Of a DNA stretch of 64,000 nt, positions 311 through 61,827 are shown piece by piece; position 1 is the first letter of the stretch; every line of letters starts with the position of its first letter. The position numbers and the translations under genes were made by a program. The DNA is taken from contig CAZPLB010000001.1 in NCBI GenBank assembly GCA_964587425.1, positions 30,545 through 94,544 on the forward strand, read 5' to 3'. The notes under the pieces are model-generated. The model searched no databases, was not told the origin of the DNA, and worked only from the letters and a program-made list of their open reading frames with translations. Source of the DNA: an uncultured Gammaproteobacteria bacterium (lineage in GTDB: Bacteria > Patescibacteriota > Microgenomatia > UBA8517).

Positions 311-1177
311 TTGTCATTTATGAATGAATCGTTAAATACAATTCTTCCAGGTTTTATTGATTACCTTAAGGGAAAAGGTAGATCTCCTGCCACCATCTTA
401 GCCTACAGGGCAGATCTTGGGCAACTCATCGAATTCATTACCGCTCGAAACAAAGCTACAGCTCTCCAGGTTAATGCTTCTGATATTGAGGGATTCCGCG
501 ACTATTTACTTGCCCAGAAATATACTCCAAAGTCAGTTTCCAGGAAACTTAATGCTGTCAAAACCTTTTTTGGATGGCTTCATGAAAACAACATTGTTAG
601 CTTTGATCCTTCAAAAACTGTGTCTCACCCCAAACTTGAAGCTCAGCCACCAAAATTCCTCTCCCCGCTTGAATATAGGGCACTAAGGGATACTGCAAGA
701 AGCGATATCAGGATTGCAACAATAATTGAGCTTATTTTGCAGACTGGGATGAGAATTTCAGAGATTGCTTCTTTGAAGAAAGAGCATATTAAAGAAGAAA
801 TCATAATAATTGAAGCTTATGCAACACAGAAGACAAGGGAGATACCTTTAAATCAGATAGCTAAAAACACTATACAAACATTTTTACAAATGCATCCAAG
901 CAGCGCTGAATTTATATTTGTAAGCAAGAACGGGAAGCCGCTTGCTATTCGAAACATTCGCGCAATGATTGATAGATATTTTCAGAAGGCAGAGGTTCCA
1001 CAGTATTCAGTTAATGATTTGCGTACCACTTTTGTAATTGAAAACTTAAAAAGAGGGGTTGATTTGGTTCTAATCTCTCAGGTAACTGGACACAAGAGAC
1101 TTTCGACCACTCAAAGTTATTTGGAGCTGGCTGGAGTCAAAGAACCTGGTAAAAAACAAAAATTAGAAGAGCTTTAA
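311..1177 (+). CDS. Tyrosine site-specific recombinase, XerC/XerD (phage integrase) family
   Basis: N-terminal SAM-like domain 'ILAYRADLGQL'; C-terminal catalytic region with 'HKRLSTTQSYLEL' (His..Arg..Tyr) typical of Xer/integrase. Confidence 0.85.
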   Translation: MSFMNESLNTILPGFIDYLKGKGRSPATILAYRADLGQLIEFITARNKATALQVNASDIEGFRDYLLAQKYTPKSVSRKLNAVKTFFGWLHENNIVSFDPSKTVSHPKLEAQPPKFLSPLEYRALRDTARSDIRIATIIELILQTGMRISEIASLKKEHIKEEIIIIEAYATQKTREIPLNQIAKNTIQTFLQMHPSSAEFIFVSKNGKPLAIRNIRAMIDRYFQKAEVPQYSVNDLRTTFVIENLKRGVDLVLISQVTGHKRLSTTQSYLELAGVKEPGKKQKLEEL

Positions 1178-2018: not shown

Positions 2019-2274
2019 CTAAATCACCCCAAATTCGAAGATATATTTCCACTGCGCTTTCTCGTCCCATGAAATAGGCGTACTCTCTTAAAACAGATTT
2101 CACGACATCTTCATCTGCATTACGAATTCCTGCTTTCAAATTCCTTTTCATGGCAACTGACCAATCTAAAACATTTTCCTTAAAAAGTTCCTTTGATTTT
2201 AGTTCAGTTGGTCTGCCTTCAGGGAAAACTTCCTCAATAAATTGTTCTTTAGATTCGATATTGAATACTGACAT
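1978..2274 (-). CDS. Hypothetical acidic protein
   Basis: ORF only. Confidence 0.3.
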   Translation of the reverse strand: MSVFNIESKEQFIEEVFPEGRPTELKSKELFKENVLDWSVAMKRNLKAGIRNADEDVVKSVLREYAYFMGRESAVEIYLRIWGDLVEENMEDDQDETL

Positions 2275-2282
2275 ATTGCGTT

Positions 2283-2356
2283 TGGTGGGCCCTGATGGAG
2301 TCGGACCATCCTTTGGTCTTTATAAGAGACCCGTCCTAGCCGATGAACGAAGGGCC
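2283..2356 (-). tRNA. tRNA-like element / possible pseudo-tRNA. It has a 7-bp acceptor stem, a D-arm with GG, a T-arm and an encoded CCA, but the anticodon stem carries only a 6-nt loop (CTTATA).
   Basis: Minus strand reads GGGCCCT-TC-GTTC-ATCGGCTA-GGAC-G-GGTCT-CTTATA-AGACC-AAAG-GATGG-TCCGACT-CCATC-AGGGCCC-A-CCA. This is a GC-rich island inside AT-rich DNA. Confidence 0.45.
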
Positions 2357-2372
2357 CAGATTGCCAATTATA

Positions 2373-2732
2373 TCAAATTTTCTTTTTGGAGACTTCTTTG
2401 ACTCTGAATTTGGTAATTCTTTCTACTAATCCCCATGGTATTTCTTGATCTAGGGGAAATATTATTGTTCCTCTTCCACCTTTAAATTTTGATAATTCTT
2501 TTCCAAAAACAGTTCTGGGCGAGGAGGTTGGGAAAAAACTTATGTGGTCTTTGAAACCACCAAAATGGACAAGATTTTTGCCATTTAATTTGAAAGTTGG
2601 GATGCCATAGCTAATTGTTTCAACTGCGTTTGGGGCAACACTGTGGACAACTGATCTAAATTTTGCTAATTTTTCTTGTACTTCTTTTGGGAAACCAGAG
2701 ATATATTCGTCTACTCCCTTAACGTTCTTCAT
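2373..2732 (-). CDS. DUF1801 (YdhG-like) domain protein
   Basis: Sequence pattern '...ISYGIPTFKLNGKNLVHFGGFKDHISFFP...' matches the DUF1801 family. Confidence 0.65.
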   Translation of the reverse strand: MKNVKGVDEYISGFPKEVQEKLAKFRSVVHSVAPNAVETISYGIPTFKLNGKNLVHFGGFKDHISFFPTSSPRTVFGKELSKFKGGRGTIIFPLDQEIPWGLVERITKFRVKEVSKKKI

Positions 2733-2735
2733 AAT

Positions 2736-5093
2736 TTAAAGTTTTGCGCGTCTTGTGATTTCTGCTTCAACCAACCTCATGTCTTTGCCATATCTTAGCC
2801 TACTCATTTCTATTATGATTTCTGCAATTCTTGGGTTTTCTGATGCTTTAATCTTTGCAATATCTTTAGTCATATCAAGTGAGAAAGGAGAGACGGGTTC
2901 ATTGCCAACAATTGTCTTTATGTATGCATGGTGTTTTTCTACATTCAAAAGATCATCCTCTGCAAAAACAGGGGTGAATTCATGGGTTAAGTAACTGGCA
3001 TCAGTTACTCCAACTCTATATGAGATGATTGTTCCCACATTTCCAAAAATTGCATTTTTAACTTCTTCTTCTACTTGTCCTATAAATTGGTTGGCAACGA
3101 TAAGACCAAGTCTGTATTTTCTAGCTTCAGATAGTATTACTGCAAAGTCTGGGGTGGCGAAGTTTTGAAACTCGTCAACATACAAATAGAAGTCACGGCG
3201 CTGACTTGGATCTTTAATGTCTACCCTACTCATAGCGGCCATTAGAATTCTTGGAACTATAATTAACCCCAAGAAGTTGGAGTTCTCTTCTCCCAAGCCT
3301 CCTTTGGCAAGATTAATGAGAAGGATTTTTCCTGTATCCATAATTTCTCTGAAATCAAAGGCGCTTTGGGATTGGCCAATGATGTTTCTGATGAGTTTAT
3401 TTGTAACAAACCTTCCAAATTTTGAAGTGATGTAGTCAAGAACCTCTGACTTATGGAAATCTGAGGTTTGGGCTATTTGATCAGTCCAATACCTTTTGAC
3501 TATTGGGTCGTCAACTCTTGGAAGGAGTTCTTGAACATATTTTGCATCTGTCAGAATTCTCATGATTTCAACAAAAGTTGAACCCGGCTCTGCACTCATG
3601 GCTGTTAACATGGCATTTCTAACTGCATGTTCAAACCTAGGTCCAACTATTCCAGTTTTGTATGGATCAAAAAGCTTGTACATCATATTAATTACAGCTG
3701 TTGCTACAAAGTGCTTTTGATCTTCTGTTTTTGCCTCAAGAAGATTTAGTCCCATGGGACGCTCTGTATCACTGGGGTTAAAGTAGATGACATCTTCAGC
3801 TCGCTCTGGGGGGATGAGCTTTAAGATATCTTCTATGGCGTCACCGTGGGGATCCATGAAGCAAAGCCCCTTACCTGCTCTAATGTCCTGTAAGATCATG
3901 TCTTTCAAAAGTTCTGATTTTCCAGTTCCTGTTTTACCTATGATGTAGACATGGCGCATACGATCTTCATTTCCAATATAGACAGGACGCTTTACTCCTC
4001 TATATGAACTTTCTCCAAGGTAGAGACCTGATGTTGGGATTTCAGATGGGGCCGGGGCAGTTTTGCTGTAGACCCAGTAAATATGAGGGGTGGTAATGAA
4101 CTTATTTGGGAAATGGAAAATGGTTGCCAACTCTTCTGAATTTAGTACTGATTTATGGGCGCCTCTGACGTTATACATTGGCTGATATCTATACAGAAAA
4201 TCCTCCATAAACATTGCTTTTCTTCTTACTTTTCTTCCACCTAATCCATTTAGGTCTCCATTGTATTGTTCAAAACTTGTACTAATATTTGTTAAGTGAG
4301 CCTTGGCGGAACCCTCACTTTGGGCAACAACTACAATTCTAACTGCAACTTCGAACCCTGGTTTTGCTATTTTATTTTCCACCGCTTCAAGGGTTTTGGC
4401 AGGAACACTAAACTTTGCTTTTTCTGGATCTGATTCCTGTTTTTTGGTGCTACTTATAAAACCCTTTCCTTCCTTTTGCCAAGGCAACTCTGCTGGAGAC
4501 AAAACTATTTGGATGGCTGCGGCTTCTCCTTCTCCCATTTTGGCAAGAGCTGACGTTATTGAGGACAGAGGATCAGTTGATAGTTCTCTAAATGTTTTAA
4601 TTGGGTAAAAACTGGGTTTTTTTAACTGAAGAGATTTATATGCTACTGCTCCATTTTCTGTAAAGATATTGTATTCTTCAACTTCTTGAATTTCGGCGTC
4701 TGGATAAGCTCCATGAACTTGTTTTTCAATCAAATCCTGCATCTTTTTGGGAGCCCAGATGTAGAACCTAATGTCCTCTTTTCTTGCAAGTATTTCAAAG
4801 GAAATAGTAGGCTGAATATCATATTTTTGTTTCCAACCTCCTTTTTTCATTGAAGAAAGCGATCCAATAAGTTGTTCCATTGCATCAATTTTTACTTCGT
4901 TGCCTCTTGCTACTCCCACTTGCAAGAGAACTGAGTCAATTGATCTTTCTTCTCTTTTTCTATTTTTAAATAATGTGAAGCCGATAAATCCTAGTGCAAA
5001 AAGAATAACTGAGAGAATGGCAATGAGGCCAAGAACCACAAAGATGGCCGCAAAATTGATTGTTGGAATTAAAGTAGACTCTTGTACAAACAT
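2736..5093 (-). CDS. TraG/TraD/VirD4-like type IV secretion coupling-protein-family ATPase with N-terminal TM segment and a long pre-ATPase domain
   Basis: N-terminal TM helix; Walker A 'IIGKTGTGKSELL' followed by 'CFMDPHGD'; Walker B/TraG-D_C-like 'LYVDEFQNFATPDFAVILSEARKYRLGLIVANQ'. Confidence 0.7.
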   Translation of the reverse strand: MFVQESTLIPTINFAAIFVVLGLIAILSVILFALGFIGFTLFKNRKREERSIDSVLLQVGVARGNEVKIDAMEQLIGSLSSMKKGGWKQKYDIQPTISFEILARKEDIRFYIWAPKKMQDLIEKQVHGAYPDAEIQEVEEYNIFTENGAVAYKSLQLKKPSFYPIKTFRELSTDPLSSITSALAKMGEGEAAAIQIVLSPAELPWQKEGKGFISSTKKQESDPEKAKFSVPAKTLEAVENKIAKPGFEVAVRIVVVAQSEGSAKAHLTNISTSFEQYNGDLNGLGGRKVRRKAMFMEDFLYRYQPMYNVRGAHKSVLNSEELATIFHFPNKFITTPHIYWVYSKTAPAPSEIPTSGLYLGESSYRGVKRPVYIGNEDRMRHVYIIGKTGTGKSELLKDMILQDIRAGKGLCFMDPHGDAIEDILKLIPPERAEDVIYFNPSDTERPMGLNLLEAKTEDQKHFVATAVINMMYKLFDPYKTGIVGPRFEHAVRNAMLTAMSAEPGSTFVEIMRILTDAKYVQELLPRVDDPIVKRYWTDQIAQTSDFHKSEVLDYITSKFGRFVTNKLIRNIIGQSQSAFDFREIMDTGKILLINLAKGGLGEENSNFLGLIIVPRILMAAMSRVDIKDPSQRRDFYLYVDEFQNFATPDFAVILSEARKYRLGLIVANQFIGQVEEEVKNAIFGNVGTIISYRVGVTDASYLTHEFTPVFAEDDLLNVEKHHAYIKTIVGNEPVSPFSLDMTKDIAKIKASENPRIAEIIIEMSRLRYGKDMRLVEAEITRRAKL

Positions 5094-5094
5094 G

Positions 5095-5418
5095 TTAGCT
5101 TTTAACTACGACTTGTTTTCCAAAATGAAATGCCTTTTTAATCATTCTTAACCAGAACAGTCCAAGCCATGTAATTGCATTTTCTATTTTTCCTTTGGAC
5201 CAACCCAGTAGTGTAGTTTGACTAGCTGGAATAGTTATTGTGGCAGCAGTATTTTGTGATGTCTGGATCATGGGTTTACCACTATCGTCTGTTACCTGTC
5301 CAGTAAAATTATTTGAGACAGCTGTAACTCCAACTTCTTGCAAGTTTTCAGGCACAGTTGGGGTTTCAGGAATTTCCTGAACAACACTTTCTGATTCTTT
5401 TTCGGGGAAGAGGGACAT
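5095..5418 (-). CDS. Hypothetical protein directly upstream of, and coupled to, the coupling ATPase (Ser/Thr/Gln-rich, C-terminal amphipathic segment)
   Basis: Stop codon abuts the ATPase start (5095 vs 5093). Confidence 0.35.
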   Translation of the reverse strand: MSLFPEKESESVVQEIPETPTVPENLQEVGVTAVSNNFTGQVTDDSGKPMIQTSQNTAATITIPASQTTLLGWSKGKIENAITWLGLFWLRMIKKAFHFGKQVVVKS

Positions 5419-5449
5419 ATCACAAATATTTTAACACGTTTTGCCTAGA

Positions 5450-5986
5450 TTATTTAGTTTTCCAGATTTCTTCAGTGAAGCCTTCGGACATGTTTACATA
5501 TCTTGAAAACATCCATAAATAATCTGAGAGTCTGTTTAAAAACTTTAATATTGTTGGCCTCACTTTTTCCTCTTTACTTAATGCCACTACCCTTCTTTCT
5601 GCTTTACGTGCCAAGGCTCTGGCGTAAAAAATCATAGTTCCCGTATTTGACCCTCCTGAAATTATGAAGTTGGTTACTTTGGGGAGTTTACTTTCCCAGA
5701 AGTCAATTTGTTTTTCCATTTTTTTAACTTTTGAAGAACTTAATTTTAAATCAGAACCGGCAAGAATTGAGGCAGTTGTGAATAAATCCAATTGAGTCTC
5801 TTTGATTAATTCCTCAACTTCTTTGTGTTTGGTGAAAGACTTGGCAATTCCAAGAAAACTATTCAATTCATCAATGGCACCTATTGCATTTACACGAAGT
5901 GAATCTTTACCAAGCCTCACTGGAGCATCTTTGGGGCTAATCATCCCTGTTTCTCCTTTGTCTCCTTTTTTGGTGTAGATTGGCAT
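5450..5986 (-). CDS. ATP:cob(I)alamin adenosyltransferase, PduO/MMAB type
   Basis: N-terminus 'MPIYTKKGDKGETGM' is the PduO-type signature. Confidence 0.85.
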   Translation of the reverse strand: MPIYTKKGDKGETGMISPKDAPVRLGKDSLRVNAIGAIDELNSFLGIAKSFTKHKEVEELIKETQLDLFTTASILAGSDLKLSSSKVKKMEKQIDFWESKLPKVTNFIISGGSNTGTMIFYARALARKAERRVVALSKEEKVRPTILKFLNRLSDYLWMFSRYVNMSEGFTEEIWKTK

Positions 5987-6019
5987 CTCGCTATTCTAAC
6001 TCAAAGCAACAACTTTTGC

Positions 6020-9000
6020 TTAACACTCAGCATGGCCACAGGAGTAACATTTTGCACAGCCTTCTTCTAATACCAAGCTTGCTTCCCCACAACTGGGACA
6101 AATGTCTTTGTGTGCCTTTTCAAGAAGACTAGGCTGCATGGTTACTTTTGGCACTACATGACCATTGCCTTCTGAGTCTTGGTAACCAATGAAGCCAAAG
6201 TGCATTCCTAGGGCTTTTGCTACAGCATCTGGAAGGCTTCTAACTTTGTTTACTCCAAAGCCAACTGATCCTGCTCCCCCAATTCCTTGGAGTTGTTCCA
6301 TGATTTCTCTAGCTCTTTCTTTTGCCGGGAGGTGATTTCCAAATCTAAGATTAGTTGAAATTAATCTTCCTAAAGCCTCTGCCATGGCTGCAAGTTCACT
6401 GCCTGCTTTTCCTACTGCGCAAAATACTTCAAATGGATTACCATCTTCATCTTGATTTACTGTGATGAAAGCATTGCCCATTGGGGTTTTTATTTTGTAT
6501 GTTGCCCCCTCTACTTTTACTGGGCGTTCTTTAATTGTAACCTCTGGTTTCTTTTCTTCTTCCTTCTTTTCATCAACTTTTGAAAGAACTCCCATGCGGC
6601 TTCCATCTCTAAAGTAAGTTACACCCTTGCAGCCTAGTTCATATGCCAAGGTATAAAGTTTTTTGACGTCATCTACTGTGTGAGAGTTAGGGGCATTGAC
6701 TGTTTTACTAATGGATGAGTCGACATATTCTTGGATTTTTGCCTGGACACGGACGTGCTCTTCTGGAGTTAGTTCACTTGCGCTTACAAAATAGTTAGGT
6801 ACTGTTTCACCTTGGTGCCTGTCCATCCACTCTTGGTAGAGAGGGTGATTAACTATGTGAACTCCAGTTCTGTCTGTTCTTTTGTAACTAAATTCATAAA
6901 CTGGTTCTATCCCAGAGCTTACTCCTGCCAAAAGAGATATAGTTCCAGTTGGAGCTTGGGTCAAGATGACAGCATTCCTAATTCCCTGGTCTGCAATTTT
7001 TTCTTGAATTTCAACAGGAAGTTTTTTGATGAATTGTCCTTGGAGATATTTTTCTTTTACGAATCCACCAAATACTCCTTTTTCTTTAGCGAGGTCGCTT
7101 GAAGTATTGTAGGCAGTATCACGAATGGTTTTGTATATTTTTTCAATTGTGACAAGAGATTCATCGGATCCATATCGAAGACCCATTTTTATTAGAGCGT
7201 CCCCTAACCCAAGCGTTCCAATACCAGTTCTTCTGATGTTCATTTGTGCCTTTTTATTTTCTTCGTAGAAATAATAGTTTGCATCAACTACGTTATCTAG
7301 GAATCGTGTAGCTGTTGCTGTGTGTTCTGCCAGGCTTTCATAATTCATTTGTCCATTTTCAACAAAAGCAGAGAGATTTAAATGGCCGAGGTTACAGACT
7401 CCCCATGCTCCCAATCCTTGCTCTCCACAGTTGTGAACTACAAAACCATTTGCAATGAATGAATGAGTCAATGGCTCTGTTAGATCGTATACCCATTCTT
7501 TTCCGGTAAACTTCAAGTCTTCAAAAGTTACTTGAAATTTCTCTTTGTAAGTACCATCTTTGTAGCCTTTTAGGGCATCAATTAGTTTTGCATTTTTATA
7601 GTCAACTAAGAATCCAATTTCTTTTGCAAATTTCCACAAATTATCTTTTGATATGACAAGATCGTGATATTCTTTGCAGAAATAGTCTTTCCTTCCACCT
7701 TTGCCGTCTGGCATCGAACGGTAACCGGCGTCTCTTCGGTTGCAATATATTTTTGAAGCAACTCCAAAGTTTAAAAGAAGTCTCTGGACATCTTGGAGCA
7801 TGTTGTAACTAACTGAAGTTAGCCTAACACTTACTCCTTTATCTGCTGTGCCTGCAACATGTCCGTCTGCTGTAAATAAAGCTTGTAAGAATCCTTTTTG
7901 CATATCTTCACTACCTGTGAATATTTTTTCTGGGACATTTATTTTATTTCCCGGAGTAATGCCATATTCAGAGACTAGTTTCCAAAGTCTTGTAGACCCT
8001 ACCCTTGCTTCATCTCTTTCGTCAATCCAGCCGACTCCCACTTTGTAATCTCTCTGGTTGATTTGCATTCCATCTACCAAATGGTTTACCATACTCGCAA
8101 ATTTGGGGGCGAGTTGCTGTTTTTCCTGTCCAAAGAAGGAGAGTACAGCTTCTGTTGCTTTCATTGTTCCGTCTCCTACCAACCAGCCTAAAACTTGTCC
8201 AAGTTCTTCGCTGCCAACTTTACCAAACCCTCCTTTTTGGTTTGAAATAAGAACCTTGTTTCCTTTTTTTAGATCCTTTGCTTTTTTCCACCCTTTGTCT
8301 GTCATCACTTGGTGGTCATTTGTAAGTTTTAATTCATATCCTTCTCTTGTTGTTAGTTTGTAAACTTCTTTAAACCCTGTTTTTACTGTTTTTGAACTTT
8401 TTGTCCATGAACCTTTATTAAATCTTCCATCGATTAAAACGTTTGGTTCTATTTTTGAATCAAATAAGTAAGAAGCTCTTAATAGACCATCTTCAGTTGA
8501 AACCAATGTGTCTCCTGTAATACAAGGGTTTGTTGCAATAATTTTTTCGAAGTACCAAGTGTTACTCATTTTGTTGTACCTATCGATAAATACTGCACCT
8601 GGTTCTGCACTTCTCCAAGCTGCTTCACAAATTGAATTCCAGACGTCCTTTGCTTTTACTGTTTTGTAAAGTTTTACTGGATAACCTTTTTCCTTCCATC
8701 CTTTCAAATCACCGTCCCAGACTTCATCATAGTTTTCATGCGTTGTGTCTGGAAATTCCAATTTCCAATCTCCATCTACTTTAACCGCTTCCATAAAGTC
8801 ATCTGATACACAAACTGAAAGATTTGCTCCTGGGATTTTTGTTAAGTCTTGTTTTACTGTTATGAATTCTTCAACATCTGGGTGCCAGTCGTTAAGCATT
8901 AACATGAGGGCTCCACGTCTACTGCCACCTTGTTGGATGACATCGTGGTTGGCTGTTGAATAGAGACTTGCCCAGTTGACAGGACCCGATGATAGGCCAT

Positions 9001-9517
9001 TAACCTTTCTTACTCTTGCTCCTCTTGGACGAAGAGAACTTAGGTTGATTCCAACTCCACCAGCACGGGATTGGATTTCTACTGTCTTTGTTATATTGTC
9101 CATAATTCCTCCACGGCTGTCGCTTGGAGACGGGATAACATAGCAATTGTAGTAAGTTACTTCATATGGAGTTCCTGCTCCTGAAAGGATTCTCCCCGCT
9201 GGAACAAACTTAAAGCCTTGCATTGCTTTGTAGAATTTTTCTTCCCAGGGTTTTCTATCTTTTGGTTTTTCAACTTGAGAGATGCCCCAAGCAACACGTC
9301 TCCACATTTGTTCTGGATATTTCTCGAGTGCTCTTCCCTCCTCTTCATCTTTAAGAGAATATCGGTCGAGAAAAACTTCTTGTCTGAAGCCATCCAAGAC
9401 TGTTGGATTGGCAGGGGCATCAAAAACAAACTCCTTGTTTCTTTTTTTAGGAGTTACAATTTGTTTCTTTTTGTTTTTCTCTTTTTCAATAACTACTGTT
9501 GCTGGCATATATTTCAA
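6020..9517 (-). CDS. nrdJ: Ribonucleotide reductase, probably adenosylcobalamin-dependent class II (NrdJ), interrupted by an intein; C-terminal Cys-rich zinc-ribbon-like tail
   Basis: Active-site 'ATNPC|...|GEQ' split by intein; conserved blocks 'RAGGVGINLSSLRPRGA', 'CGEQ'; C-terminus 'CPSCGE...CAKCYSCGH'; adjacent PduO supports AdoCbl dependence. Confidence 0.8.
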   Translation of the reverse strand: MKYMPATVVIEKEKNKKKQIVTPKKRNKEFVFDAPANPTVLDGFRQEVFLDRYSLKDEEEGRALEKYPEQMWRRVAWGISQVEKPKDRKPWEEKFYKAMQGFKFVPAGRILSGAGTPYEVTYYNCYVIPSPSDSRGGIMDNITKTVEIQSRAGGVGINLSSLRPRGARVRKVNGLSSGPVNWASLYSTANHDVIQQGGSRRGALMLMLNDWHPDVEEFITVKQDLTKIPGANLSVCVSDDFMEAVKVDGDWKLEFPDTTHENYDEVWDGDLKGWKEKGYPVKLYKTVKAKDVWNSICEAAWRSAEPGAVFIDRYNKMSNTWYFEKIIATNPCITGDTLVSTEDGLLRASYLFDSKIEPNVLIDGRFNKGSWTKSSKTVKTGFKEVYKLTTREGYELKLTNDHQVMTDKGWKKAKDLKKGNKVLISNQKGGFGKVGSEELGQVLGWLVGDGTMKATEAVLSFFGQEKQQLAPKFASMVNHLVDGMQINQRDYKVGVGWIDERDEARVGSTRLWKLVSEYGITPGNKINVPEKIFTGSEDMQKGFLQALFTADGHVAGTADKGVSVRLTSVSYNMLQDVQRLLLNFGVASKIYCNRRDAGYRSMPDGKGGRKDYFCKEYHDLVISKDNLWKFAKEIGFLVDYKNAKLIDALKGYKDGTYKEKFQVTFEDLKFTGKEWVYDLTEPLTHSFIANGFVVHNCGEQGLGAWGVCNLGHLNLSAFVENGQMNYESLAEHTATATRFLDNVVDANYYFYEENKKAQMNIRRTGIGTLGLGDALIKMGLRYGSDESLVTIEKIYKTIRDTAYNTSSDLAKEKGVFGGFVKEKYLQGQFIKKLPVEIQEKIADQGIRNAVILTQAPTGTISLLAGVSSGIEPVYEFSYKRTDRTGVHIVNHPLYQEWMDRHQGETVPNYFVSASELTPEEHVRVQAKIQEYVDSSISKTVNAPNSHTVDDVKKLYTLAYELGCKGVTYFRDGSRMGVLSKVDEKKEEEKKPEVTIKERPVKVEGATYKIKTPMGNAFITVNQDEDGNPFEVFCAVGKAGSELAAMAEALGRLISTNLRFGNHLPAKERAREIMEQLQGIGGAGSVGFGVNKVRSLPDAVAKALGMHFGFIGYQDSEGNGHVVPKVTMQPSLLEKAHKDICPSCGEASLVLEEGCAKCYSCGHAEC
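7430..8524 (-). mobile_element. Intein (365 aa) with LAGLIDADG-type homing endonuclease, inserted in the RNR active-site NPC|GE motif
   Basis: Starts 'CITGDTLV', ends 'VVHN' followed by extein Cys; LAGLIDADG-like blocks 'LGWLVGDGT' and 'LQALFTADGHV'. Confidence 0.8.
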
Positions 9518-9595
9518 AAATAAAACTTTTCACAAATGAAAAGGATAAATCTATCTTAATTAATCCAAAAGTTTCGTCAACTAGAAATAAATAAC

Positions 9596-10216
9596 TCAAA
9601 AGCTGTCAAAAGGGTTTTGGGGAGAGATTCTGCCCATATCAACTAAATTGCTTTTGGTCTCGAGGAAAAGTTTCTTGGGGTAATCCTCTGCCTGAACTAT
9701 CATTGGCTTGGCATCTTCTGGGGCATAATTCATGATTTCATCCATGACTTGCCTGTGCTTGAGCGTTGCCAATGCAAACCTTGAAAGGAATTCTGATGTA
9801 TCTGCTCCACTTGTTCTTGCTTTCTGTTCAGCATATTTTGCTTCTTCTAAATATTTTTCTGCTTTCACTAGAACTGACGCCCCAAGATCTGAATTTCCAT
9901 CTTTAAAGAGAGTTGTAGATTGTGCGAGCCTTTTGTCTGCAATAGTAAGAAGAGTGTTGGCTTTTTTCAGGTTGTTGAATGCAAATACTACCCAGAGTCT
10001 GTCTCTTACAGCCTTAAATGGCCAAAAAGGACTGTCTGGAGCAATTGGACCTGGGTAAACTAATTCATATTTTATATCCATGTCTTTTGCTGCGACTGGA
10101 GTAGGGCTTGGGGTTTGACCAAAAGCATATTGTATTTGTGAAGATTCAAGAATTGAGAATGCAAGAATTAGACTTGCGAAAAGAAAAGTTGCCGAAATTC
10201 CCGCTAAACGCTTCAT
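9596..10216 (-). CDS. Secreted DUF5667-like protein (signal peptide)
   Basis: N-terminal signal peptide; family common in CPR genomes. Confidence 0.45.
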   Translation of the reverse strand: MKRLAGISATFLFASLILAFSILESSQIQYAFGQTPSPTPVAAKDMDIKYELVYPGPIAPDSPFWPFKAVRDRLWVVFAFNNLKKANTLLTIADKRLAQSTTLFKDGNSDLGASVLVKAEKYLEEAKYAEQKARTSGADTSEFLSRFALATLKHRQVMDEIMNYAPEDAKPMIVQAEDYPKKLFLETKSNLVDMGRISPQNPFDSF

Positions 10217-10281
10217 TATTAGGTAATTATTAGGTTAACACAGGTTGTCAACAACTTTCAATTGTCTTTAGACAAGTACTC

Positions 10282-10926
10282 CTATCTAAATAGCATTATT
10301 GGCCATTCCCAGAGGACATGAAGAAGGATTGAGGAAGAAATGTTTCTGGTTCTTGAATAGAGATATGTGGAGCCAAGACCGAATACAAATGTTAGAAAAA
10401 TGTAAACAATGGAAGTTGCAAAATTGTATTTCCAAACAAAGATCATTACTGGAACATGGATTACTGTCCAAAGAACGCTAGTTATTATGTTTGATGTGAA
10501 TTCATTTTTAAAAACAAGAGAGAGTCTTGTAAAAATGTAGCCTCTGAAGGTGATCTCTTCCGATATGGCTGTTGCAAAAGAAATTCCAAGCGAGCTAAAA
10601 ATTCCTAGTGTTCCCAGGTTTGCCTGAAAATTAAGGTGGCCATACTTTACAAAATTTGTGACAATGGCCTCAATTGCAAAAAGGGAACCAAGAGCTAGAG
10701 AGAGATATATTGCTGGAAAGAGATTTTTAGTGGTTATACCAAGGTTTTCAAGTTTGAGGTGTCCTCTTTTAAAGAAAAAGAAAGTGGCTCCAAGCCAAAT
10801 TGCCGGCTTTAATACTAACTCCTCTACTTCCTGTGGGAGCTGAAAAAATAATCTATAGAAACCCCATACAACAAAGAGGAAAACAAAAAGACTTATTGAA
10901 TCTTTGAGTGCCCTAACCTTCCCCAT
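10282..10926 (-). CDS. CPBP (CAAX protease/Abi) family intramembrane metalloprotease
   Basis: Multi-TM; signature 'ISEEITFRGYIF' (EExxxR) and downstream His motifs. Confidence 0.8.
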   Translation of the reverse strand: MGKVRALKDSISLFVFLFVVWGFYRLFFQLPQEVEELVLKPAIWLGATFFFFKRGHLKLENLGITTKNLFPAIYLSLALGSLFAIEAIVTNFVKYGHLNFQANLGTLGIFSSLGISFATAISEEITFRGYIFTRLSLVFKNEFTSNIITSVLWTVIHVPVMIFVWKYNFATSIVYIFLTFVFGLGSTYLYSRTRNISSSILLHVLWEWPIMLFR

Positions 10927-54250: not shown

Positions 54251-55252
54251 TTAAGAATCTTTAATCAAACTCCAAGTTGCATACTCCTCAGGGGTTAATG
54301 ATAACTTATGCTTCCCCTTTTTACTCATGGACATTGCAAAGTGCGGTACAAGAATATTTTTTTCATATGATTTTATAATTGCTGGGTGGATGTAGTAGAT
54401 GCGACATACTCTTTTTGTATTTCCTAAGTGGTTTGAAACTTCGGATACAACATCTGTGATATTGGTTTTCATTTCTTTCTCTCCCTCTGCACTTCCTTTT
54501 TTATAGAATGAATCCCCTGCTAGTACACTTGCCCCCCAAGTACGAAAATCTTTGGCTGAGAAATCACCGCCAGTGTGGGTATGCAAATACGCATTTACAT
54601 CTCCTGAATCTACGACCTGTTTTTTGTTGTTTTCATCCATGTATTGGAAAAGTTCGTAACCTGGAAGCTCAATACATTCTTTTATTGTTTTGGCAACTCT
54701 ATTGTTACTTATATCAAGTTCGTGGAAGACTCCACTTTTACCTTCAAAACTAAAGGTTACAGTATTGCCTTTGACACCAATGTGTTTTTCCCGCATGGTA
54801 GTTAGTCCGTATGATTGATTTTCTTTGGCATACTCAACATTTCCTACTCGAATAAAGGTGTGCTCTAAAAGCCAAACTACTGTTGCAATAACTCGGTCAC
54901 AAGTTAGAGCGCGCTCGTGCATATGGGAGTGCACAATGTGGCGAAGAGTTGGGAGACGCTCGCCAAAGGCAATTAATTGATCAAACTTGTCTTCCTGATT
55001 TCTTCTCACCCATTCAATGTGGTAAATGTATTGTTTCCTTCCTTTGGCATCAGTGCCTGTTGCCTGTATGTAGTCCAAGGGATCTGGACTTATCTCCACG
55101 TCTTTCCAAGCAGGAGGGATATTGAGGTCTGAAATTCTTTTTTCTCTCTTTTTTGAAACTTTTTTTCCACTTTTGCTGACAAACACAAAGCCACTATTCT
55201 TTTTAATTCTTCTTACACTTCTACTTTTGTTTCTAAAATGAATTGGCGCCAC
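54251..55252 (-). CDS. DNA topoisomerase IB (poxvirus-like type)
   Basis: 'IPPAW', 'GRKQYIYH', C-terminal 'CRIYYIHP' catalytic Tyr region. Confidence 0.75.
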   Translation of the reverse strand: MAPIHFRNKSRSVRRIKKNSGFVFVSKSGKKVSKKREKRISDLNIPPAWKDVEISPDPLDYIQATGTDAKGRKQYIYHIEWVRRNQEDKFDQLIAFGERLPTLRHIVHSHMHERALTCDRVIATVVWLLEHTFIRVGNVEYAKENQSYGLTTMREKHIGVKGNTVTFSFEGKSGVFHELDISNNRVAKTIKECIELPGYELFQYMDENNKKQVVDSGDVNAYLHTHTGGDFSAKDFRTWGASVLAGDSFYKKGSAEGEKEMKTNITDVVSEVSNHLGNTKRVCRIYYIHPAIIKSYEKNILVPHFAMSMSKKGKHKLSLTPEEYATWSLIKDS

Positions 55253-61526: not shown

Positions 61527-61788
61527 TGGCTCCCCGGGTAGGATTCGAACCTACGACCTCGATCTTACAGAAATCCTCTTGTTACCAAGAGGGCTGGACT
61601 ATTTCATCATCCTTTTCAGGATGTCGGGTATATAGTCTCTACACATTTACCAAGATATCTTGGATTTAGCTCGAGATTGTCCTTTTTTTGAAAGGAGTTC
61701 CTCGAATTAGCCCAATTTTCATCCTGGTGTTACCACCAAGAGCTGCCTTACTCAACAGGATCTCGCGCTACCGCTGCGCCACCGGGGA
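61527..61788 (-). tRNA. tRNA-Asn(GUU) gene split by a ~187-nt intron within the anticodon (exons approx. 61755-61788 and 61527-61567)
   Basis: Spliced product reads TCCCCGG-TG-GCGC-AGCGGTA-GCGC-G-AGATC-CTGTTAA-GATCG-AGGTC-GTAGG-TTCGAAT-CCTAC-CCGGGGA-G-CCA. Loop CUGUUAA matches bacterial tRNA-Asn. One A27:G43 mismatch. Confidence 0.6.
61568..61754 (-). ncRNA. Putative self-splicing group I-like intron in tRNA-Asn
   Basis: U preceding the 5' splice site can pair as U:G with intron 'GCAG' (P1-like). The intron ends in G. There are two GNRA (GTAA) hairpins, TTGGTG/CACCAG and CCTCTTG/CAAGAGG, plus a CCAAG-ATAT-CTTGG hairpin. Confidence 0.4.
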
Positions 61789-61827
61789 ATGTATGTAAAG
61801 GAACAAGGCTATTATACCAATTGGAGT

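Follow-up and report, generated by a model that had tools for sequence, protein, structure and literature searches.

What interrupts the catalytic loop of a ribonucleotide reductase (RNR) gene in this DNA, and does the interruption belong to the enzyme or to a mobile element? The question concerns 365 codons at 7430..8524 of the window, by which we mean the whole stretch of 64,000 nucleotides that was analysed. The DNA comes from a bacterium with a small genome of the Patescibacteria type. A sequence-only reading had taken these codons for an intein, and our analysis supports that reading, which overreached in emphasis only. The refuting checks proposed with it were all carried out, and the reading withstood each of them. 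We hold with high confidence that 7430..8524 is a class 1 intein with a double-motif LAGLIDADG endonuclease, situated in nrdJ at NP/CGE (a slash within a motif marks the splice junction).

Host gene

The interrupted gene and its two exteins are laid out as follows.

6020..9517, minus strand: nrdJ precursor gene, putative class II AdoCbl-dependent RNR with one intein (ORF, TIGR02504, Pfam)
8525..9517, minus strand: N-extein, precursor residues 1-331, ending ...EKIIATNP (alignment to T. maritima NrdJ, 1XJE)
6020..7429, minus strand: C-extein, CGEQGLGAWGVCNLG..., with the stop codon (ORF, Pfam, 1XJE alignment)

From its family matches, the ORF at 6020..9517 would encode a class II, adenosylcobalamin-dependent ribonucleotide reductase, as had been proposed. 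The NrdJ equivalog model TIGR02504 (NrdJ_Z) scores 554.7 bits against a cut-off of 400 (E 2.6e-166), the Pfam matches are Ribonuc_red_lgN, Ribonuc_red_lgC and TSCPD, with the RNR barrel domain at E 2.1e-116, and the catalytic residues C134, N320, C322, E324 and C333 of 1XJE all have equivalents in the alignment. The N-extein contains the first redox cysteine (YYNCYVIP, equivalent to C134) and the Asn of NPCGE (equivalent to N320), and the C-extein comprises the remaining barrel, the TSCPD domain and a Cys-rich C-terminal tail (CPSCGE...CAKCYSCGHAEC). Adenosylcobalamin-dependent activity is likely on two grounds, membership in this family and the adjacent PduO-type adenosyltransferase. The 1165-aa ORF described earlier does exist, but that length hangs on a TTG start; from the ATG at 9508 the precursor has 1162 aa, and an identical 1162-aa protein (P0001) has been called from that ATG in public data.

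Intein boundaries and splicing residues

The insertion resolves into the two parts of a Hint (splicing) domain, with an endonuclease domain between them that is described further below.

7430..8524, minus strand: intein, 365 aa, class 1 (Cys1 ... His-Asn / Cys+1) (HMMs, AF2 model, Foldseek)
8225..8524, minus strand: N-terminal half of the Hint domain, intein residues 1-100 (TIGR01445, mini-intein alignment, allele alignment)
8501..8524, minus strand: block A, CITGDTLV (intein N-terminus)
8300..8332, minus strand: block B, LKLTNDHQVMT, with T68 and H71 (allele alignment)
7430..7549, minus strand: C-terminal part of the Hint domain, intein residues 326-365 (TIGR01443, DnaB mini-intein alignment)
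7427..7429, minus strand: Cys+1 codon TGT (1XJE alignment, C322 equivalent)

The insertion occupies precursor residues 332-696 in frame, runs from CITGDTLV to FVVHN and is followed by Cys; its flanks are ...EKIIATNP before and CGEQGLGAWGVC after. The earlier description of a 365-aa insertion that starts with Cys and ends with His-Asn before a further Cys was thus exact to the base. That description was also right in naming the catalytic motif, but it split the motif as NPC/GE; the first Cys is the intein's own, and the junction lies at NP/CGE. The positions given in that description already implied NP/CGE. With this as the true junction, Cys+1 would become the thiyl-radical cysteine of NrdJ after splicing.

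All splicing residues are kept: C1 in block A, T68 and H71 in block B, D347 and H354 in block F (VYDLTEPLTHSFIANG), H364 and N365 in block G (FVVHN), and Cys+1. The C-terminus of the intein reads VYDLTEPLTHSFIANGFVVHN/C. In alignment A1, C1, T68 and H71 are invariant, and N365 and Cys+1 occur in 103/103 alleles, a set recovered with a pattern that demanded Asn, Gln or Asp and then Cys. Autocatalytic splicing would be expected from so fully conserved a set of residues. Four models score above their curated cut-offs, namely the intein N-terminal model TIGR01445 (39.5 bits, cut-off 24.5), the intein C-terminal model TIGR01443 (25.8 bits, cut-off 15.6), Intein_splicing PF14890 (59 bits, E 5e-16) and the LAGLIDADG model PF14528, and, as judged by the HMM E-values, the assignment of the insertion is far beyond chance. 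In a sequence search against PDB chains, the Hint blocks align with the solved DnaB, DnaX and RecA mini-inteins. A second intein was looked for with an HMM built from the 103 alleles, run against six-frame ORFs of at least 60 aa in the window, and only the nrdJ intein matched.

The segment might instead be a lineage-specific RNR domain, or an artefact of assembly or frameshift. We found nothing in favour of this idea, whose probability we regard as negligible, and it is refuted by the intein and LAGLIDADG models that score above their cut-offs. When the intein is removed, NrdJ aligns with 1XJE gaplessly over the junction (iaTNPCGEqGL against nsTNPCGEiGL), and intein-free syntenic orthologues meet exactly at NP/CGE; in one of them, L003, the junction reads ...GAAAAAATAATTGCAACTAATCCT/TGTGGCGAGCAAGGTTTAGGGGCT..., 23/24 junction residues are identical to ours and the junction is clean at the DNA level. 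A Logan contig provides an independent assembly of identical sequence, and the predicted fold, described next, matches solved inteins.

Endonuclease domain and predicted fold

Between the two parts of the Hint domain lies the second functional unit of the intein.

7550..8224, minus strand: predicted LAGLIDADG homing-endonuclease domain, intein residues ~101-325 (PF14528, conserved Asp, model)
8165..8191, minus strand: motif 1, LGWLVGDGT, intein residues 112-120, with D118 (allele alignment)
7859..7891, minus strand: motif 2, FLQALFTADGH, intein residues 212-222, with D220 (allele alignment)

The two LAGLIDADG-like blocks noted earlier correspond to these motifs, and LAGLIDADG_3 (PF14528) matches with 83 bits (E 2e-23). 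The acidic residues D118 and D220 are both present; they do not vary in alignment A1, and conservation in their two columns is 95% or higher over the 103 allelic inteins. The AF2 model of the intein (pLDDT 91, pTM 0.91) predicts a Hint fold (horseshoe beta) formed by the N- and C-terminal segments, and between them a pseudo-dimeric alpha-beta-beta-alpha-beta-beta-alpha fold like that of I-DmoI. In this model each LAGLIDADG motif closes a helix (106-118 and 206-220), and beta hairpins follow both. The top PDB matches in Foldseek are all endonuclease-containing inteins (7QSU at 7e-20, then 7QSS, 1DQ3, 7QST, 1VDE and 2CW7), followed by I-DmoI and I-Tsp061I at ~1e-8; the mini-inteins 6FRG, 5I0A and 2IN0 are also matched. 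Judging from the conserved residues, the intein probably has homing-endonuclease activity. In LAGLIDADG enzymes, changes beyond the two aspartates can also abolish activity.

Proposed mechanism

Translation would yield a precursor of ~130 kDa, which should be inactive because its active-site loop NPCGE is split by 365 residues, as can be read directly from the sequence. Splicing would begin with an N-S acyl shift at Cys1, helped by T68 and H71 of block B, after which the thioester would pass to Cys+1; N365 would then cyclise, helped by H364 and by D347 and H354 of block F, and release the intein, and an S-N shift would restore the peptide bond. The expected products are an NrdJ of ~800 aa (800 from the TTG, 797 from the ATG) with the TNPCGEQ loop intact, and a free protein of ~40 kDa. 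As this free intein, or as a domain inside the precursor, a monomeric LAGLIDADG endonuclease with intact aspartates (D118, D220) would presumably cut an intein-less nrdJ allele near ...GCAACWAAYCCT/TGYGGNGAGCAAGG..., and repair of the cut allele would copy the intein in, which is homing. Two features of the distribution would follow from homing, namely that the closest orthologues are intein-free within the same gene neighbourhoods and that hundreds of distant alleles occupy the same codon.

Distribution and history of the intein

NP/CGE is the classical site, the commonest known insertion point for RNR inteins (Dassa 2009, PMC2677866), and RNR ranks second in frequency among bacterial intein hosts (PMC4760082). 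At least 568 related stretches were found among species-representative genomes; the site was inspected in the best 80 of these genome loci, which come from several phyla, and 74/80 have an allelic intein at NP/CGE. The allelic family extends to a Nitrosopumilus MAG. Of the 120 best-matching homologues, 17 retain an uninterrupted NPCGE and the other 103 have an intein at this position. Within this set, the nine hosts whose exteins are closest (79-81% identity) all lack the intein, and the nearest intein-bearing hosts have exteins 75-77% and inteins 59-66% identical to the window copy. The gene order PBP1, Rce1-like, DUF5667, nrdJ, pduO, a small ORF and DUF8128-TrwB-like is common to loci with the intein (the window and L002) and without it (L003, L005 and L008).

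Does the endonuclease still home, or is the intein a passenger? An intein that still splices but whose endonuclease is dead, fixed and vertically inherited late in the homing cycle, would owe its patchy presence among relatives to ancient gains and exact losses, not to continuing homing. Divergence of the inteins closely tracks that of the exteins (r = 0.85), so much of the family history appears to be vertical; the closest allele to the window intein among the matches listed is only 66% identical; and intein GC (37.1%) is near that of the extein (40.7%) and equal to the window average, hence base composition gives no sign of a recent arrival. All three agree with such a passenger, as does the fact that endonuclease activity is not readable from sequence. 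Yet, across the 103 alleles, conservation reaches at least 95% both at the two catalytic Asp and in the LAGLIDADG helices around them, and the endonuclease domain equals or exceeds the Hint domain in this respect (column means of 0.69 for the former, and of 0.62 and 0.67 for the latter). At 365 aa, within a family range of 359-392, the intein has no truncation or large deletion, the nine closest host orthologues lack it, and in 555/4095 pairs the intein is more alike than the extein, which suggests transfer. Weighing these points, we consider a dead endonuclease possible but rather unlikely, and prefer an intein whose endonuclease is presumably active.

A different role would be that of a post-translational switch, in which splicing is conditional, for example through a Cys1/Cys+1 disulfide that forms under oxidation and delays dNTP synthesis. 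Cys1 and Cys+1 do flank the intein within the catalytic loop, and the tendency of inteins to gather at functional sites of proteins for replication and dNTP supply has been put forward as a hint that they serve a function (PMC4760082). However, homing into a conserved site is enough by itself to place inteins in conserved active-site codons, the same residue arrangement is required of an intein that is purely selfish, no sequence feature points directly to a switch, and close relatives thrive without the intein. We therefore regard co-option as very unlikely.

The adenosyltransferase neighbour

Downstream of nrdJ lies the gene that would supply its cofactor.

5450..5986, minus strand: PduO-type ATP:cob(I)alamin adenosyltransferase, 178 aa (PF01923, TIGR00636, PDB matches)

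This gene starts 33 nt past the nrdJ stop on the same strand, directly downstream, where a PduO-type enzyme had been predicted. Its product begins YTKKGDKGETG and matches PF01923 (155 bits) and TIGR00636 (158 bits, cut-off 108); full-length PDB matches are B. subtilis YvqK 1RTY (3e-33), L. reuteri PduO 3CI1 (5e-25) and human MMAB 2IDX (4e-23). Most likely, PduO turns scavenged cobalamin into adenosylcobalamin for the spliced NrdJ. The two genes are probably co-transcribed, considering the 33-nt spacing and the conserved adjacency. A promoter and terminator consensus scan of 2200..10400, in which sites were no more frequent than in shuffled sequence, gave no terminator-like site on the minus strand in the gap between the two genes. 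Our literature search on NrdJ with an adenosyltransferase in Patescibacteria returned nothing directly usable.

The linkage that the sequence-only reading had singled out recurs in related small genomes: in 6/7 Patescibacteria loci examined, one of them from a distant Gottesmanbacteria genome, pduO is found downstream of nrdJ at a distance of no more than one gene and in the same orientation. This recurrence argues against the improbable alternative that the two genes are neighbours by chance and do not form a functional module for cofactor supply, as does the finding that NrdJ is the only match to a B12-dependent enzyme family among the scanned window ORFs. The alternative draws on the missing linkage in Blackburnbacteria locus L007 and Dictyobacter L006, on the lack of any cobalamin riboswitch in the window at the Rfam gathering threshold, and on the lack of B12 transporters, or other B12 enzymes, in a Pfam scan of ~45 window ORFs, which took in the majority of those with 140 aa or more. 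Next to pduO in locus L004 lie DUF4430 and DUF6580 genes, which are candidates for cobalamin uptake. A bolder proposal would combine both features of the locus, with nrdJ and pduO as a minimal module to scavenge, adenosylate and use B12 in auxotrophic Patescibacteria with reduced genomes, and the intein at the radical cysteine as a conditional gate, perhaps a redox-dependent one that works through Cys1 and Cys+1, which times RNR maturation and is not only selfish. We hold this to be highly doubtful; if it were true, the wide allelic family would stand for repeated cross-phylum and cross-domain homing into an extremely conserved codon string.

Significance

It is a textbook pattern that inteins settle in the active-site codons that are most conserved in genes for replication and dNTP supply, and this locus is another instance of it. 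The finding is ordinary because it concerns the commonest and best-known intein site in these RNRs, and the kind of element is already known, with an allelic family in hundreds of genomes. Its main value is for annotation, since the ORF of 1165 aa stands for an NrdJ of ~800 aa plus a 365-aa mobile element and ought not to be taken for an oversized or fused reductase. The sole dNTP-synthesis enzyme seen in the window would rely on protein splicing and on external cobalamin activated by PduO, and the conserved pair of nrdJ and pduO can usefully serve to flag Patescibacteria genomes that depend on B12. Of modest practical value are the many natural Cys1/Cys+1 LAGLIDADG inteins and their intein-less targets, which could be mined for splicing or endonuclease tools.

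Comparison with known inteins

The closest counterparts are the allelic NrdJ inteins of Dictyobacter (P0085, P0100), Gottesmanbacteria, Woesebacteria and Chloroflexota, which share the enzyme, the codon and the architecture, and whose hosts NCBI names 'intein-containing adenosylcobalamin-dependent ribonucleoside-diphosphate reductase'. They have a Hint domain split by a double-motif LAGLIDADG domain, measure 359-392 aa, are 47-66% identical to the window intein and likewise have C1, TxxH, GWLVGDG, LFxxDG, the terminal Asn and Cys+1. The window intein ends in His-Asn, whereas ~60% of the 103 alleles (from the top protein matches) end in Ser-Asn or Leu-Asn, and, unlike these alleles, the window copy has intein-free closest host orthologues.

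The endonuclease inteins of solved structure, PI-PfuI (1DQ3, from the RNR of Pyrococcus furiosus), PI-SceI (1VDE), Tli/Pho VMA (7QSU/7QST) and PI-TkoII (2CW7), share the predicted two-domain fold with Foldseek E values of 7e-20 to 3e-11, and TM-scores of 0.57-0.65, and the same mechanism is expected of them; sequence identity is only 11-20%. At 365 aa the window intein is smaller than PI-PfuI (454) and PI-TkoII (537), which suggests that it is without their extra DNA-recognition or stirrup regions. The Pyrococcus RNR inteins were considered as possible close allelic relatives; the sequence search against PDB chains matched only mini-intein splicing domains and missed PI-PfuI, which is therefore not a close relative. 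For PI-PfuII, the literature search gave nothing directly usable. A match to NCBIfam PRK08332 hints that a Thermococcales RNR intein may end at the same junction.

The SPbeta NrdE intein (Bsu SPbeta RIR1), described by Lazarevic et al. 1998 according to the citation in PMC3653736, also lies directly N-terminal to the thiyl-radical cysteine (SNL/C...GN/CSE); it is of LAGLIDADG type and similar length and is 30% identical across all 365 residues. Its host differs, being a phage class Ib NrdE and not a bacterial class II NrdJ, and its penultimate residue is Gly where the window intein has His. The NrdJ-1 split intein from metagenomes (Dassa et al. 2009, PMC2677866) shares the host enzyme NrdJ and the catalytic loop, but it is inserted one residue more C-terminal, after the Cys (PMC2677866), and is naturally split with a free-standing endonuclease gene, whereas the window intein is one continuous segment with a LAGLIDADG domain inside it.

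The nrdJ intein and its splice junction

We describe an intein that interrupts nrdJ, the gene for a class II ribonucleotide reductase (RNR): where it begins and ends, its key residues and predicted fold, the orthologous loci that lack it, and how widely it occurs. The features concerned are:

6020..9517, minus strand: nrdJ precursor, ORF of 1165 aa from a TTG start
7430..8524, minus strand: intein, 365 aa, precursor residues 332-696
5450..5986, minus strand: pduO, 178 aa, beginning 33 nt past the nrdJ stop

The whole precursor scored 554.7 bits with NrdJ_Z (TIGR02504; cut-off 400) and also matched the Pfam domains Ribonuc_red_lgN, Ribonuc_red_lgC, and TSCPD; in the identical public protein P0001, the start is an ATG at 9508, three codons past the TTG, giving 1162 aa. 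The intein begins with CITGDTL at residue 332 and ends at residue 696, read from VVHN|CGEQ, with ...YFEKIIATNP on its N side and CGEQGLGAWGVC on its C side. Motif mapping of both ends returned exactly the coordinates of the sequence-only reading. Its placement in the NPCGE loop also holds, but the cut that it drew as NPC|GE is NP|CGE: of the two junction cysteines, the first opens the intein as its residue 1, and the second occupies position +1. Removing residues 332-696 in silico leaves a spliced product of 800 aa, which aligns to the intein-free T. maritima NrdJ (PDB 1XJE, E = 4e-74) with a clean, gapless extein joint (‘iaTNPCGEqGLgawgvCNLG’ against ‘nsTNPCGEiGLsdyeaCNLG’). The active site is disrupted in the unspliced precursor because, in this alignment, the equivalents of N320 and of C134, the redox partner cysteine, lie in the N-extein, and those of C322, E324, and C333, a redox cysteine, are beyond the intein in the C-extein. 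The counterpart of C322, the thiyl-radical cysteine of T. maritima NrdJ, is Cys+1.

The insertion alone matched the intein N-terminal region (TIGR01445, 39.5 bits, cut-off 24.5), the intein C-terminal region (TIGR01443, 25.8 bits, cut-off 15.6), Intein_splicing (PF14890, 59 bits), and LAGLIDADG_3 (PF14528, 83 bits). Several “intein-containing” NCBIfam models, including those for DnaB, GyrA, RecA, RFC, and the PRK08332 RNR, match it over their intein portions, and in a PDB sequence search both of its ends align to DnaB, DnaX, and RecA mini-inteins. An AlphaFold2 model from a 14-sequence alignment reached a mean pLDDT of 91 and a pTM of 0.91. All its top Foldseek matches in the PDB were endonuclease-containing inteins (Tli VMA intein 7QSU, 7e-20; PI-PfuI 1DQ3, 4e-16; Pho VMA intein 7QST; PI-SceI 1VDE; PI-TkoII 2CW7); the free-standing LAGLIDADG enzymes I-DmoI and I-Tsp061I came next. 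The set of splicing residues is complete: C1, T68 and H71 in block B, D347 and H354 in block F, and H364 and N365 in block G, then Cys+1. Standard class 1 protein splicing would rebuild the NPCGE loop. The intein reading as a whole is confirmed as an observation and supported as an interpretation.

The endonuclease and allelic inteins

Both acidic residues expected of a LAGLIDADG enzyme are present, D118 closing the predicted helix 106-118 (LGWLVGDG) and D220 closing the predicted helix 206-220 (LFTADG). Among the best 120 homologues from a search with the full precursor, 103 carry an intein of 359-392 aa, every one inserted at NP|C in the NPCGE loop, and the loop is uninterrupted in 17. Their C-terminal dipeptide is SN in 50, HN in 38, and LN in 12. 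Across the 103 aligned inteins, C1, the TxDH block, GWLVGDG, the DG of the second motif, and the terminal N are at least 90-95% conserved, as are many endonuclease-domain positions (RLTS, DVQRLLLNFG, NRR, PDGKGG). Conservation of this domain (column mean 0.69, versus 0.62 and 0.67 for the Hint segments) argues for purifying selection on the endonuclease across the allelic family. The enzyme is probably active, and cleavage and homing would account for the spread of the element.

Eight homologues of 1458-1598 aa (P0007, P0031, P0041, P0048, P0076, P0098, P0115, and P0117) have 300-430 aa of extra length. They hold additional Hint/homing-endonuclease domains (PF13403, PF07591, PF05204) and are therefore candidates for a second intein at a site other than NP|CGE.

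Empty sites and inheritance

Within the best 120, the nine closest homologues by extein identity (79-81%) all lack the intein, and the nearest intein-bearing hosts have 75-77% extein and 59-66% intein identity. Intein-plus loci (the window and L002) and intein-minus loci (L003, L005, and L008) have in common the order PBP1, small HEPN-like ORF, Rce1-like, DUF5667, (NrdR), nrdJ, pduO, then an ORF of ~100 aa and a DUF8128-TrwB-like ATPase. The shared order therefore marks these loci as orthologous, with the intein as the difference. The joined window flanks match the uninterrupted DNA of L003 at 61 of 72 positions and that of L005 at 59 of 72, with the break precisely at the boundary of the CCT (Pro) and TGT (Cys) codons. 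The syntenic relatives, among them an 811-kb chromosome-sized record (OZ246419.1, holding L005), indicate a Patescibacteria/CPR genome, as do the homologue source names (Gottesmanbacteria, Blackburnbacteria, Microgenomates, and “Patescibacteria group”); this agrees with the earlier suggestion of a reduced genome.

A NrdR repressor gene lies directly upstream of nrdJ in L002 (4560..5000) and in the Gottesmanbacteria locus L004 (4513..4959), and is absent at the nrdJ loci of the window, L003, L005, and L008; in the window just 78 nt (9518..9595) separate nrdJ from the DUF5667 gene.

Over 4095 pairs, extein and intein identity correlate at r = 0.85, and intein similarity exceeds extein similarity in 555; P0029, for example, shows ~61% extein and ~73% intein identity with many others. 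The history is therefore mostly vertical, with some apparent transfers.

The adenosyltransferase and a proposed cofactor link

A PduO-type adenosyltransferase does lie immediately downstream of nrdJ, as first proposed: the 5450..5986 product scored 155 bits with PF01923 and 158 bits (cut-off 108) with the PduO_Nterm equivalog domain TIGR00636, and aligned full-length with B. subtilis YvqK (1RTY, 3e-33), L. reuteri PduO (3CI1), and human MMAB (2IDX). In the window, L002, L003, and L004, pduO directly follows nrdJ; L005 and L008 have one small gene in between, and no pduO was found near nrdJ in the Blackburnbacteria (L007) and Dictyobacter (L006) loci. From gene order, a functional linkage conserved in this lineage is reasonable, and the two genes are probably co-transcribed. 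Our literature search found no paper describing the linkage. A riboswitch search of the window and a Pfam comparison of most of its ORFs of 140 aa or more turned up neither a cobalamin riboswitch nor any B12 transporter or further B12 enzyme.

Downstream lie two further genes:

5095..5418, minus strand: ORF of ~100 aa, no Pfam match
2736..5093, minus strand: 785-aa DUF8128/TrwB-like coupling-protein ATPase, its start abutting the stop of the small ORF

This pair (2736..5418) follows nrdJ-pduO in all close relatives (L002, L003, L005, and L008). In L004 (9172..12530), the genes after nrdJ-pduO encode a 797-aa product without a Pfam match, a DUF4430 protein, and a membrane protein with DUF6580. 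Together these may serve to bind and import cobalamin, and the cofactor module would then be larger; nothing equivalent turned up in the window.

Other features of the window

311..1177: tyrosine recombinase (Phage_integrase)
2283..2357, minus strand: tRNA-Ile, anticodon UAU
54251..55252, minus strand: type IB topoisomerase (PF01028, with the bacterial N-terminal domain PF21338)
61530..61790, minus strand: group I intron region (Rfam RF00028) in a tRNA gene downstream of rpoD

The tRNA-Ile(UAU), unusual in bacteria, lies a short way downstream of the nrdJ-pduO-TrwB-like block, with the recombinase gene nearby. Type IB topoisomerases are uncommon in bacteria. The group I intron (61575..61764, 83.6 bits) sits inside an anticodon and contains no ORF; the 5' exon ends ...GAGATCCTGT and the 3' exon runs TAAGATCGAGG...GGGGAGCCA, and the joined flanks give a 75-nt tRNA-Asn(GUU) recognised by ARAGORN. 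It is a second self-splicing element in the window, besides the nrdJ intein.

Distribution and comparison with known inteins

With the intein alignment as query, a search through one genome from each GTDB species gave at least 568 related stretches, the 80 best being 51-65% identical. By record title, hosts of these 80 are Chloroflexota (Anaerolineae, Dehalococcoidia, and others), Patescibacteria (Woesebacteria, Azambacteria), Thermoleophilia, Bacteroidota, MAGs labelled Gammaproteobacteria, and a Nitrosopumilus MAG. All 74 loci with readable junctions among them read NP|C...N|CGE. The complete 819-kb Woesebacteria genome CP011214.1 carries an allelic intein. Locus L062, in an archaeal (thaumarchaeal) record (Nitrosopumilus sp. 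MAG chromosome OZ250186.1, 3001..4086), has a 52%-identical intein at NP|CGE. Alleles in the Nitrosopumilus, Bacteroidota, Thermoleophilia, and “Gammaproteobacteria” MAGs suggest cross-phylum, possibly cross-domain, spread, or mis-binning.

The best relative in phage genomes is the known SPbeta bnrdE intein (30% identity, full length), whose site (SNL|CVTGE...GIVTGN|CSE) is homologous to NP|CGE, but in a class Ib enzyme. Among RNR inteins NP|CGE is the classical site and the one used most often, and the split NrdJ-1 intein lies one residue more C-terminal (Dassa et al., PMC2677866). Among bacterial intein hosts RNR ranks second, with 211 inteins (Novikova et al., PMC4760082), and NCBI already names allelic proteins such as P0085 and P0100 [quoted passage not shown]. 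The window intein is thus another allele of a well-described element, of a kind already known.
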